Source: a virus | Lineage: Duplodnaviria; Heunggongvirae; Uroviricota; Caudoviricetes | Reading direction: 5' to 3' (one strand) | IMG/VR virus record: IMGVR_UViG_2690316149_000014 | Coordinates: 1-17,767 of that record | Length of the DNA stretch: 17,767 nucleotides | In this document: piece after piece, positions 8,461-12,047 of the stretch | Layout of the letters: each line of letters opens with the position of its first letter | How positions within the stretch are numbered: the first letter of the stretch is position 1 | Made by a program: the position numbers and the translations under genes | Notes under the pieces: model-generated | Told to the model about the DNA's origin: nothing | The model's input: only the letters and a program-made list of their open reading frames with translations | Database searches by the model: none

Positions 8461-9429
8461 TTAGTAGGTTATTTTTGTTGCGAATACTTCGCCTTTTACG
8501 ATGGCTGTTATGATATTTTTAGCAACATCTTCTGATGCGCCAACCTTGATAAGGTCAGCAAGTATTTTGTTATTTACTTCTTTCCGGTGAGCTTTATCCT
8601 TTGCTCTACGCTCTTCTTCGTCCTTGATTCTTTTTTCTTCTGCTATTCTGGCTTGCTCTTTTGCTTCAGCCTCGCGACGGGTTCGTTCAGCCTCCTCCTG
8701 TGCTTTTCTGCGTTCTGCTTCAATTGCTGCCTGCTTTTCTCTTTCAGCTCGTTCTGCTGCCTCTTTTGCTTCGCGCTGTGCTCGTTGCTCGGCTTCAATG
8801 CGTTCACGCTCTGCACGTTCCGCTGCGGCCTTAGCTTCTGCTTCTCGCCTTGCTGCTGCTTCAATTTCGGCTTTTGCCTTTGCTTCGGCTTCTGCTCTGG
8901 CTTTCTCTTCAGCTTCTCTTTTTAATCGTTCTTCATGCTCTCGCTTTTCCTGCTCCGCTTTGAGTCTTGCCTCTTCTCTTTGGCGGTCAAATTCGCGATC
9001 CATCAAAATCGCTATTTCATGGTCAGACTCAATTTGCTTTGCGAGAGCTTCAGCTGCTGCCTTAGCTTCTTCTTCGGCTTTAATCCGCGCCTGTTCTTCC
9101 TCATAATCAGTAAGAGGCTGGCGCGCCTTGGCTTTCAGTTCATCAAGGCGATCACGCACTGTCTTGCGGTTGGCATCAATTAGCTTTGGAATTTCCTTAA
9201 GTTCAGCAACAAGGTCTTTGCCAATACCATCGAGATATGTTTTCGTCTGCGCAACTTTATACGCCAGAGAAGCGATCTCCTTTCTGCCCTTTGCCGTTGT
9301 GATATCAGGCACAAAGGACATAACTTCACGTTCAACCTTTTGAAGGATTTCTTCAATCTGGTCGGCAGACTGAAATACAGTCATTGCATTTGCTTTTTCA
9401 ATAACAACTAAATCTGTTACTTCACTCAT
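8461..9429 (-). CDS. Hypothetical phage protein, 322 aa, with long Glu/Ala/Lys/Arg-rich low-complexity coiled-coil centre
   Basis: Strong RBS GGAGGA; central ~150 aa are EAKR repeats, with matching GC-rich DNA repeats at 8600-9000. Confidence 0.65.
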   Translation of the reverse strand: MSEVTDLVVIEKANAMTVFQSADQIEEILQKVEREVMSFVPDITTAKGRKEIASLAYKVAQTKTYLDGIGKDLVAELKEIPKLIDANRKTVRDRLDELKAKARQPLTDYEEEQARIKAEEEAKAAAEALAKQIESDHEIAILMDREFDRQREEARLKAEQEKREHEERLKREAEEKARAEAEAKAKAEIEAAARREAEAKAAAERAERERIEAEQRAQREAKEAAERAEREKQAAIEAERRKAQEEAERTRREAEAKEQARIAEEKRIKDEEERRAKDKAHRKEVNNKILADLIKVGASEDVAKNIITAIVKGEVFATKITY

Positions 9430-9441
9430 ATATCCTCCATC

Positions 9442-9468
9442 AAAAAAATTGCCCTCACATTAGAGGGC
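9442..9468 (-). terminator. Intrinsic terminator in the leftward early operon (tL1-like): GCCCTC-loop-GAGGGC stem plus U-run
   Basis: Minus strand reads GCCCTCTAATGTGAGGGCAATTTTTTT. Lies between the 156-aa gene and the RBS of the 322-aa gene. Confidence 0.6.
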
Positions 9469-9530
9469 AAAGAAGATTTCCAATAATCAGAACAAGTCGG
9501 CTCCTGTTTAGTTACGAGCGACATTGCTCC

Positions 9531-9572: not shown

Positions 9573-10043
9573 CTAATAAAACACCCAGTTTTCTGTTTCT
9601 TGGTTGTGTCCAAAGTTATATTCAATATCTGGTGTTGATGTATCAATATTCTTCATCCCATCAACAAGAGTTGATACAACAGCCAAATCTTGTTTGATTC
9701 TCATTAAATGGTATTTCTTCCGGCGCAATAAACTCTCAATGGCAAGTTTCTTCGTTGGGAATGCAAAAGATCTTTCTGCATTTTTTGCTACTTTCTTAAT
9801 TGCATATCTATTTCTCCTTTGTTTCCATTCCTGTAACCACTGATTTGGTGCTGGTTTAAAATTAACAATCCAATGCGCAGGAACCAACCATGCATAATGC
9901 TCTGTCTGATGAAAAGCTATATATTGAAGTGCGAATATTTTTATCCCATCTTCTTCAACTGTCGCCTGGAATCTCCAGAAAACAGGCATTCCATCATGTT
10001 CAGTTTCTGATTCAGGAAAAGGTACGCTCCATGATTTTGTCAT
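9573..10043 (-). CDS. Hypothetical protein, 156 aa, in an AT-rich segment (moron-like)
   Basis: RBS GAGGTGAG; starts 8 nt after the N stop; local GC visibly lower than flanking genes; no recognisable motif. Confidence 0.65.
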   Translation of the reverse strand: MTKSWSVPFPESETEHDGMPVFWRFQATVEEDGIKIFALQYIAFHQTEHYAWLVPAHWIVNFKPAPNQWLQEWKQRRNRYAIKKVAKNAERSFAFPTKKLAIESLLRRKKYHLMRIKQDLAVVSTLVDGMKNIDTSTPDIEYNFGHNQETENWVFY

Positions 10044-10051
10044 ATCTCACC

Positions 10052-10351
10052 TCAAATAAGTGGTTTGCTGCCTAATTTCATTTTCTGGCGACCAACACAA
10101 GTCACACCCATTTCACTGCGTGGCTTGCGGTAGTAAATACGATTCTGTTTACTCTCTACTTCTTCTGCCTTCTTGCAGCGAAGGCTTCCGAGTGATGCTG
10201 CTTTATCTGCTCTGACGCAACCAGAGAGCTTTAGCGCAATTTTTCGCGCCAGTCGCTGCTCTTGCATTGCCTGTTCACGTTGAGCCTGTCTGCGTGCTCT
10301 GCGGCGATTTCTGGCGTTATCGTCAGCCAGATATGTAATGACTACTGTCAT
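10052..10351 (-). CDS. N: N-family transcription antiterminator, 99 aa, with arginine-rich motif
   Basis: Track ORF 10052..10423 trimmed to the ATG at 10351 (RBS GGAGG). N-terminal ARM …NARNRRRARRQAQREQ…; first gene downstream of pL/nutL; matching boxA/boxB sites on both sides of the immunity region. Confidence 0.65.
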   Translation of the reverse strand: MTVVITYLADDNARNRRRARRQAQREQAMQEQRLARKIALKLSGCVRADKAASLGSLRCKKAEEVESKQNRIYYRKPRSEMGVTCVGRQKMKLGSKPLI

Positions 10352-10391
10352 GTTGACCTCCGGGAAGGTACACATCCTTGTGTGTCGATGA

Positions 10392-10511
10392 TTATTTGTT
10401 TTTGCGTTCCCACATCCAGTCATCTACTTCAGACCAGATAGTGAAACCGAAGCAGATGGCGAATGTGGTAACTAAACCACCGAGAATTGGGTTGGTCATG
10501 ATGTCTAACAT
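10392..10511 (-). CDS. Possible small hydrophobic peptide, 39 aa, in the pL leader between nutL and N
   Basis: Below the track cutoff. RBS GAGGAA 6 nt before the ATG; one predicted TM helix. Could be a chance ORF. Confidence 0.25.
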   Translation of the reverse strand: MLDIMTNPILGGLVTTFAICFGFTIWSEVDDWMWERKNK

Positions 10512-10681
10512 TTTCTGTTCCTCAGATGATTAGCTTTGGTGGTGTGGTAGGTGGGAGACCCATTTCGACCCGCTTCGTCCGACTTCAATTCGGCAATAGT
10601 CCCGCAGGCCTCGCCGCTTTACGTGCGACATATTCCCGTCCATGAACCCTTCACCACACCCCAAAGCCAACTACTCTTTGG

Positions 10682-10724
10682 TTCCCGCATTTCGGCGGGA
10701 CAATCCCATCAATGTTAAAGAGCC
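10682..10724 (-). promoter_or_regulatory. nutL-like site: boxA (GGCTCTTTAACA) plus boxB hairpin (UCCCGC-CGAAAU-GCGGGA) in minus-strand transcript sense
   Basis: The boxB RNA is identical to the one at 12381-12398 on the opposite strand; boxA matches the CGCTCTTTA-type consensus. Confidence 0.6.
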
Positions 10725-10770
10725 TGCCAATCTTTTCCGTTTGGCTTCCAGCGTCCTGCTGATGGCTAAA

Positions 10771-10855
10771 GAATACTGTAGGTATTTTATTGTGTAAATA
10801 CCCAAGGTATTTATTTTTGATGAAATAATGATAAACAAATGAATACAAAGGATAT
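10771..10855. promoter_or_regulatory. OL operator cluster / pL region: three sites of form GAATAC-N5-GTATT
   Basis: Sites at ~10771-10786, 10797-10811 and a weaker one at ~10841-10855 share half sites with the OR operators. Confidence 0.55.
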
Positions 10856-10943: not shown

Positions 10944-11312
10944 TTAGTCAGCGAAGGTTAAGACGAGAATTACCTTAATGATGTCTGCTACAACAGACAC
11001 GGCCATAGATAAACCAAAGACGATCCAAGCCATAGAGATGTCTTCACTACCATCGTATAGGGTTCCGTAATCACTGGTGTAAGGCGTAAATGTCGCGCCT
11101 TGATACAATAGGTATAAGCTTGATCCATAGAGGATAAATGCAGATATCCCTTGTATTGCTATGATCACTAGAATCATGAAACGAGCTGATCTATGCGCCC
11201 AAGCCTGGCTTATTTTTTCTGATAGAGATTTCGCAATAAAAGCATGCGCTAAGCCGTAAATTGTTGAGATTGCCAACATCCCCAAAAAGCTTGCTATAGC
11301 GGTTCCAACCAT
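10944..11312 (-). CDS. Small polytopic membrane protein, 122 aa, ~4 TM helices, in the rex position immediately downstream of cI
   Basis: RBS AAGGGGG; begins 19 nt after the cI stop on the same strand, upstream of OL/pL. No family recognised. Confidence 0.65.
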   Translation of the reverse strand: MVGTAIASFLGMLAISTIYGLAHAFIAKSLSEKISQAWAHRSARFMILVIIAIQGISAFILYGSSLYLLYQGATFTPYTSDYGTLYDGSEDISMAWIVFGLSMAVSVVADIIKVILVLTFAD

Positions 11313-11330: not shown

Positions 11331-12047
11331 TCAAACCAGTCTGAGTTTTGTCTCAATTGCAACGCCTATAATCTTGCAGTTTCCATTGATTGGCACGAGA
11401 GGCCATGCAGGATTAAGTCCCTTGAGGTATTTATTTCCGCCGTCGATTATCAGCTTCTTGAATGTTGCTTCGTTAGAGTCAGAAAGTTTTGCTATGACCA
11501 AGCTGCCGTTGATCGCCTCCCTTCCGGTATCGAAAAGAACGAATGTTCCCTCTGGAATGCTTAACCCAACCGGTGCCGTCATTGAATCACCTTCCACTTT
11601 AAGCCAGAACGCATTACCTTGAATATGCGCGTCAGACTCAAGCCAAACATCTATGTCTTTAATGGTGTATGGTTCGCATGCTTCACACCACGAGCCAGCC
11701 TGGATACTGCTTAACACCGGATACCTCTTTCCTGCTCTGTATTCCCCTGCATACCTTACGTTGGCATCGCTCTTAAGGCTTTCTGCCTGTTCTGCAACCT
11801 TGGCAGCAATTGACTGGCTAAAATCAGCAATTGAGACTTGCAACAATCGTGCAAAACCAGATGCAACCTCAACGTTTAGCGCGTTTCTGCCATTAAGATA
11901 ATGCCCTACCGCTCCTTGGGTGATACCCAGTTCATCAGCGATTGAGTATTGGGTTATTCCCAATTCTTTCTTTTTTGACTCATACAAAGCCTTAAGCCGC
12001 TTAGCGTCTTCGAGCTGTTCTGTCGTCAGTGATTTTTTATTTTCCAT
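11331..12047 (-). CDS. cI: CI-type prophage repressor: N-terminal XRE-family HTH plus C-terminal LexA/S24-like autocleavage domain, 238 aa
   Basis: HTH …QYSIADELGITQGAVGHYLNG…; C-terminal S24 signature …GDSM…/…KL…; no SD before the ATG (leaderless, as for lambda pRM); divergent from cro across an operator region. Confidence 0.9.
   Translation of the reverse strand: MENKKSLTTEQLEDAKRLKALYESKKKELGITQYSIADELGITQGAVGHYLNGRNALNVEVASGFARLLQVSIADFSQSIAAKVAEQAESLKSDANVRYAGEYRAGKRYPVLSSIQAGSWCEACEPYTIKDIDVWLESDAHIQGNAFWLKVEGDSMTAPVGLSIPEGTFVLFDTGREAINGSLVIAKLSDSNEATFKKLIIDGGNKYLKGLNPAWPLVPINGNCKIIGVAIETKLRLV

Follow-up and report, generated by a model that had tools for sequence, protein, structure and literature searches.

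A predicted membrane-peptide gene in the nutL-N leader of a minority of lambdoid prophages

Few regulatory leaders in molecular biology have been studied as closely as the nutL-N interval, which is regarded as non-coding. Lambda is not known to have a coding sequence there, and neither HK620 nor 933W carries an annotated gene at the corresponding place. The question raised by the locus described here is whether a 39-codon open reading frame in this interval, termed ORF39, is a gene at all, and if so what a phage might gain from placing it there. The frame was noticed in a 17,767-nt stretch of viral DNA, referred to below as the window. A first-pass annotation, made from the letters alone, had left the choice between a chance ORF and a small membrane peptide that is expressed with N. 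On a single sequence the two are inseparable, because the region holds many ORFs of at least 30 aa, and our argument is hence largely a comparative one.

The pL transcript and its first cistron

The left arm of a lambdoid immunity region lies on the minus strand of the window, as do all the features described in this section. From 10860 to 10649 the window is 98.6% identical to HK620, in which tIMM, OL1-3, pL and nutL are annotated. Homology to HK620 pL/OL1-3 identifies the pL promoter (TTTACA-17-TATTCT, 10798..10770) within the OL operators, and a homolog of the annotated HK620 nutL follows at 10723..10684, made up of boxA (GCTCTTTAACA, 10723..10713) and a boxB that folds as the hairpin CCCGC-CGAAAU-GCGGG (10699..10684). 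Next comes a large stem-loop with a G-rich and a C-rich arm (GGCUUUGGGGUGUGGUG...CACCACACCACCAAAGC, about 10668..10532), which ends just before the Shine-Dalgarno (SD) sequence of ORF39. Phage 933W has this stem-loop in its N leader at 95.7% identity, with the N ATG 11 nt beyond its end; in the window, the leader as a whole folds with z=-3.8. The large stem-loop appears to be the counterpart of the RNase III hairpin in the lambda N leader. In one related locus (L003) it is shorter, with compensated arm sequences, and another (L040) has a short version of it between ORF39 and N.

ORF39 occupies 10511..10392, from an ATG to a TAA stop at 10394..10392, and is preceded by the SD GAGGAA (10523..10518) with a 6-nt spacer (10517..10512). 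Its 39-aa translation, MLDIMTNPILGGLVTTFAICFGFTIWSEVDDWMWERKNK, is that of a predicted single-pass membrane peptide belonging to the family phrog_7482. The frame, its translation, the GAGGAA with its 6-nt spacing from the ATG and the one transmembrane (TM) helix were all found exactly as the first-pass annotation had given them, and its placement of the ORF between nutL and N agrees with the HK620-type pL and nutL upstream and the N-like gene downstream. That annotation had also put the end of the frame about 40 nt before the N ribosome-binding site; the figure is right for the distance to the N ATG at 10351, whereas the N SD (GGAGG, 10361..10357, conserved in alignments) is only some 30 nt away. 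The N gene itself (10351..10052) encodes a 99-aa protein with the arginine-rich motif NARNRRRARRQAQ, which matches phrog_271, 'anti-termination protein N-like', at E=1e-36, and the Pfam family N_peptide weakly (E=0.004).

A 156-aa ORF (9573-10043; phrog_1636, no assigned function) starts 8 nt after N and has a strong terminator-like hairpin with a T run behind it. It is followed by the gene for a 322-aa protein (8461-9429) with a long, highly charged E/A/K/R-rich repeat region, which matches phrog_1376 and phrog_21365, both without assigned function, and has a relative named 'cell envelope biogenesis protein TolA' by PGAP. A terminator scan found no minus-strand terminator-like site between pL and N, the first intrinsic-terminator-like site on the pL transcript being an 8-bp stem followed by a T run at 9470..9449; ORF39 would therefore lie in the N-independent segment of that transcript, and the presumed N-independent unit consists of ORF39, N and the 156-aa ORF. 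Its position, downstream of pL/OL and of the nutL boxA and boxB and upstream of N, is that of a member of the lambdoid pL immediate-early unit.

On the other side of tIMM lies the gene for a cI-type repressor with S24 and HTH domains (11331-12047, Pfam). The position between cI and tIMM, which is that of rexB, is taken by a gene for a 122-aa multi-pass membrane protein (10944-11312; phrog_6534, no assigned function), the equivalent of HK620 hkaS. In the lysogen it is probably transcribed together with the repressor, and it is therefore a candidate for a prophage-expressed exclusion or defence gene.

Coding status and family of ORF39

Lambdoid copies of ORF39 were gathered from searches of 5.8 billion proteins and of IMG/VR, giving a comparison set of 45 loci with 23 distinct DNA versions and amino acid identities down to 59%. 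The frame runs through all 45 loci at 39 codons without a stop or an indel; a further relative (P0020) has 40 aa, with one additional in-frame residue after the start. The first-pass annotation had pointed to conservation in related prophages as a check on its own proposal, and ORF39 proves intact in all diverged lambdoid copies and under purifying selection. It had also named frameshifts or stops in otherwise identical relatives as the observation that would speak against a gene. Two truncated copies turned up (P0006 and P0007) and no point disruptions; we considered both as refuting frameshifts and rejected them, as each is the junction of a large deletion or rearrangement that also removes N.

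We do not, however, regard an intact frame as decisive. The antisense frame -2 is equally open in 23 of 23 versions, and openness by itself is for that reason weak evidence. In its place we relied on dN/dS, on conservation of the start codon and SD, and on distant homologs. Across the 23 versions, variable sites fall 19/14/32 on the three codon positions, and the median dN/dS is 0.18 (NG86), a rough value given 39 codons and partly saturated dS; this is half of the 0.35 obtained for the antisense frame -2 control, which has neither a conserved start nor conserved ends. Every version keeps the ATG and, 5-10 nt before it, a GAGG-, GGAG- or AGAGG-type SD, even where, as in several of them, the leader further upstream is non-homologous. 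In the window the open antisense frame is a 51-aa ORF that overlaps ORF39 (10378-10533, plus strand, TTG start), which on comparative evidence is a by-product of the constraint on the sense frame.

These results bear on the possibility that ORF39 is a chance ORF, or a frame that stays open only because the RNA or the opposite strand is constrained. Such a reading can appeal to the abundance of ORFs in the window, to the open antisense frame and to the fact that PGAP never calls ORF39. It would nevertheless leave unexplained the difference in dN/dS between the two strands and the retention of ATG and SD where the flanks have been exchanged. A long hairpin predicted within the coding region depends on lineage-specific codons and is not conserved; the predicted RNA structure inside the frame differs between lineages, and we have discarded it as a source of constraint. 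Finally, ORF39 matches phrog_7482, and it has homologs in unrelated virulent phages (28-46% identity) in which stops interrupt the antisense frames. We thus judge a chance origin to be very nearly negligible in probability, and posit that ORF39 is almost certainly a real protein-coding gene.

The match to phrog_7482, a PHROGs v4 family without assigned function, is strong (E=8.1e-25, 87.5 bits) and aligns residues 1-39 with positions 1-39 of the 46-position profile. The same profile is matched by proteins of the virulent Mooglevirus (for example Shigella phage Sf18 gp86, a 'putative membrane protein') and Avunavirus groups, which are full-length homologs of 45-46 aa (45 aa in the Avunavirus, or Av-05, type). 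With these, ORF39 has in common the pattern MLDIxxNPILxG, or more broadly M(L/I)(D/E)I..NPIL(G/C)G, one TM helix, the motif SEIxD or SE(I/V)xD and a basic tail, and hence the architecture of the family, in which an N-terminal NPIL is followed by a TM helix and by an acidic and then a basic tail. Two relatives (P0020 and P0021) are intermediates that bridge the lambdoid and virulent groups. The proteins are of similar size and are early and promoter-adjacent in both settings, but the lambdoid copies have 39 rather than 45-46 aa, a C-terminus of their own, DWMW(E/D)RKNK, which the virulent homologs lack, and a place in the pL leader before N, and they are unannotated in the E. coli genomes of RefSeq. 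In both virulent groups the homolog lies right behind a sigma-70-like promoter (TTGCAA-17-TATAGT), after an intergenic gap of about 200 nt; since the virulent homologs directly follow a promoter, it is promoter-proximal early expression, as the leading gene behind an early promoter, and not N, that is common to all contexts.

The alignment of the family and the predicted fold agree on a simple peptide. The best 17-residue Kyte-Doolittle window, ILGGLVTTFAICFGFTI (residues 9-25, mean 2.04), marks a single hydrophobic segment, and AlphaFold2, run with the family alignment, predicts a short helix at residues 2-6, a break at N7-P8 and a continuous helix from 8 to 38 (mean pLDDT 84). N7, P8 and D31 are invariant throughout the family, and I9, L10 and G12 nearly so. 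Among lambdoid copies hardly any variation is seen in FTIWS or in the tail DWMW(E/D)RKNK; the core of the TM helix is variable and always hydrophobic. As predicted from these data, ORF39 consists of a short N-terminal tail with NPIL(G/C)G, one TM helix and a juxtamembrane tail, SE(V/I)xDWMW(E/D)RKNK. The basic cluster lies at the extreme C-terminus, which suggests an N-out/C-in topology.

The family is very narrow, with 37 clusters among the 5.8 billion proteins searched, and all named sources of its members are Escherichia, E. albertii or Citrobacter, or phages of Escherichia, Shigella or Citrobacter. An exhaustive profile search of 1.84 billion representative proteins returned only 13 matches at E<=1e-3, none of them a new or an annotated relative, and tblastn against 50,697 deposited phage genomes recovered virulent-phage homologs and zero lambdoid copies. 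Scans of the GTDB species-representative genomes with a protein pattern and with a DNA pattern gave no confirmed copy; searches of Pfam, NCBIfam, PADLOC and PDB sequences with the peptide and its profile gave nothing meaningful; and a search of the literature turned up nothing relevant on the peptide strings, phrog_7482 or an ORF in the nutL-N leader. Of the first-pass alternatives, then, the chance ORF is contradicted, and the small membrane peptide expressed with N is supported by the phrog_7482 match, the selection on the sequence, the preserved SD, the fixed place on the pL transcript and the virulent homologs.

Two side observations concern the wider family. A 130-aa metagenomic viral protein (L052, 3001-3393) starts with MLDILKNPVIIGLFATAITYGYLLW and shows 50% identity to ORF39 over 26 residues, beyond which it runs on into another hydrophobic segment and then a hydrophilic tail. 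It could be a remote relative that has gained a domain, or the resemblance could be due to chance. In Sf18 (L005), nearly every small early gene between 343 and 2617 stands behind an identical 17-18-nt ribosome-binding context, (A/T)TCCTAAACTGGAGAATC. We had considered the 18-nt repeat that flanks the Sf18 homolog as an insertion scar, and rejected this reading, as the repeat is the standard ribosome-binding context there, with 7 copies in 3.1 kb. Sf18 gp86 has its own TTGCAA-17-TATAGT promoter before it and a GC-rich hairpin behind it, a layout that to our minds recalls the promoter/stem-loop shuffling cassettes of T4-type phages.

A variable slot in front of N

In every one of the 45 lambdoid loci, ORF39 precedes an N gene at a distance of 37-58 nt. 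The adjoining N genes nonetheless carry at least six unrelated classes of arginine-rich motif, namely the window type (NARNRRRARRQAQ), the P22 gp24 type (GNAKTRRHERRRKLAIER), a 933W-like type and three others (NSVTRRYLKRGELMAKRR, MTNREHKKLLRAIRHQQ and DNAKRRKYLKTG), and the repressor/Cro modules and the upstream leader sequences also differ among the loci. ORF39 is present in 31 of 5426 complete E. coli genomes. Two close relatives with identical nutL and N type lack it: one (L003) has a short leader, and in the other (L004) the nutL-N interval is filled by an unrelated segment of about 370 nt (1700-2079), in which we found no convincing small gene. The nutL-N interval is, as judged from this comparison, a variable slot, and ORF39 an optional accessory gene with a fixed position before N in lambdoid phages.

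ORF39 does not travel alone. Between its stop and the N SD the window has a small hairpin, ACACA-AGGA-UGUGU (10383..10370, minus strand). In diverged loci this hairpin starts 5-9 nt after the ORF39 stop and ends about 8-12 nt before the N SD; one compensatory pair is seen across them, two loci (L016 and L033) have other hairpins at this place, and leaders without ORF39 also lack the hairpin. Together the two form what the comparison identifies as a compact cassette that has been passed around lambdoid phages differing in immunity region and in N/nut specificity. The heptamer AATCATC occurs twice in the window, just before the ORF39 SD (10524-10530) and overlapping the TAA stop (10387-10393), and the ORF39-less L003 reads CAAAGTCAATCATCGGAGGTCAACATG at 1760-1790, which resembles an empty site. 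The heptamer pair may be a microhomology joint left by insertion of the cassette; the upstream copy is missing in other lineages. From this comparison of sequences we regard four points as established: ORF39 is a real gene, its protein sequence is under selection, its position is fixed, and it is optional.

Possible roles of the peptide and its hairpin

We suggest that ORF39 probably encodes an immediate-early, N-independent, single-pass inner-membrane peptide that acts in trans on a membrane target of the host. As the first cistron on the pL transcript, with its own SD and ahead of both N and the first terminator, it would be silent in the lysogen, where CI is bound at OL, and would be made immediately upon infection or induction without any need for N. 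The peptide would then contact a component of the host inner membrane through helix-helix and juxtamembrane interactions, and the outcome could be host takeover, superinfection exclusion (of DNA), counter-defence or modulation of a host membrane protein. Related copies would fill a similar place in the promoter-proximal early cassettes of virulent myophages. Because N7, P8 and D31 are common to phages with no downstream N, a function in trans that is independent of context is favoured; selection on the peptide sequence, the motifs shared with N-less phages, the lack of a co-occurring phage-encoded partner and the dispensability of the gene also fit this reading. We infer the timing of expression, the topology, the action in trans and the kind of target from these features; the target itself and the biological role are conjecture.

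The nearest points of comparison are small membrane proteins made early by phages, such as T4 Imm and Sp, HK97 gp15 and P22 SieA, and host analogs, such as MgrB, AcrZ and SgrT. They are likewise small, with a single TM helix, and made early, and binding to a larger membrane protein is presumed on both sides. We found no sequence similarity between such proteins and ORF39, however, and the likeness would be functional only. Exclusion proteins of temperate phages are typically prophage-expressed; the promoter ahead of ORF39, in contrast, is repressed in the lysogen.

A peptide of this size with a single hydrophobic helix could also be typical of a cruder agent, a small type I-toxin-like or holin-like toxin that depolarizes or permeabilizes the inner membrane without a specific partner, and the place of ORF39 behind pL/OL would keep such a toxin repressed in the lysogen. 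We consider this distinctly unlikely. Synthesis of the peptide would fall at the outset of the lytic program, when membrane damage would harm the phage, and ORF39 lies outside the lysis cassette. Conservation moreover extends beyond hydrophobicity to the polar motifs NPIL, SExxD and DWMW. A crude consensus scan detected no promoter-like sites on the opposite strand between 10000 and 11400, and an Rfam search of the whole window matched no family; with no antisense promoter or partner RNA found, ORF39 does not have the makings of a type I toxin system.

A different possibility arises from the RNA. Compared with a lambda-type N leader, the window has the same order at the same place on pL, with boxA and boxB upstream, a long stem-loop ending before the first SD, and N downstream, but here the large hairpin and the N SD are set apart by the insertion of a predicted cistron and of a further, small hairpin. 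The small hairpin carries ACAAGGAUGU (10381-10372), the core of the CsrA SELEX consensus RUACARGGAUGU, with the GGA in the loop; this pattern has one match in the window against 0.05 expected. It is retained in several lineages (L007, L028, L042-44 and L056), including some with other N classes, though not in all, and a second GGA lies within the N SD itself, 16 nt downstream of the hairpin motif. CsrA may accordingly control the translation of N.

One could go further and propose that ORF39 is a cis-acting leader ORF, the translation of which mainly serves the expression of N. In one variant, its translation would keep the leader of about 410 nt translated and shield it from Rho; in another, a ribosome terminating 8 nt before the hairpin would melt it or displace a repressor, for example CsrA bridging the hairpin GGA and the N SD. 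Synthesis of N would in that event be coupled to translation of ORF39 or to membrane insertion of the peptide. The constant distance of ORF39 from N irrespective of N class is in keeping with such a role, as are the hairpin that co-travels with it and is absent from leaders without it, the compensatory pair and the identity of ACAAGGAUGU with the CsrA consensus core. A terminating ribosome would indeed reach into the small hairpin, and the last nine residues of the peptide are almost invariant in lambdoid copies and not shared by virulent homologs. Yet selection at the protein level acts over the whole peptide, and NPIL and D31 are common to virulent homologs that have no N. In the window, 8 nt separate the end of the hairpin from the N SD and the two do not pair, so that the SD is not sequestered in the conserved structure; in the lineages with P22-type N and in the L033 lineage, UUCA or another loop takes the place of the GGA loop; and most relatives express N without an ORF39 cassette. 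On balance we think a mainly cis-acting role unlikely, albeit the main rival to action in trans.

Leader peptides of the MifM, SecM and VemP type offer a related model, in which an N-terminal membrane segment and a conserved C-terminus near the stop are followed by a hairpin and the SD of the next gene. ORF39 resembles these in outline but differs in that its hairpin excludes the downstream SD, in that no arrest motif is recognizable and in that its C-terminal motif is absent from virulent homologs; because the hairpin does not sequester the N SD, ORF39 departs from the MifM/SecM class in structure. A speculative long shot would be that ORF39 and its hairpin form a dual-purpose module, in which the peptide is a membrane effector in trans and its translation or membrane insertion also gates the synthesis of N via the CsrA-type hairpin. 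Were this true, the antitermination switch would be coupled to the physiological (Csr) or membrane state of the host, a layer of control of which we know no instance for lambda N.

We still prefer the reading of ORF39 as a membrane effector acting in trans. The family phrog_7482 was already catalogued as a phage protein family. What is new here is a selected cistron in the nutL-N leader that is first on the pL transcript, linked to the early cassettes of virulent phages and missing from annotation. Standard annotation with PGAP misses it in 31 of 31 carrier E. coli genomes. A minority of lambdoid prophages, in E. coli, E. albertii and Citrobacter, hold this gene, the product of which would be the very first protein made from pL, ahead of N and independent of it. 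ORF39 hence offers a natural case for the study of upstream-cistron effects on the translational control of N, as well as a small and well-defined candidate for studies of host takeover, exclusion or counter-defence, and the presence of the same family beside early promoters in two groups of virulent myophages points to a general need, very early on, at the inner membrane of the host.
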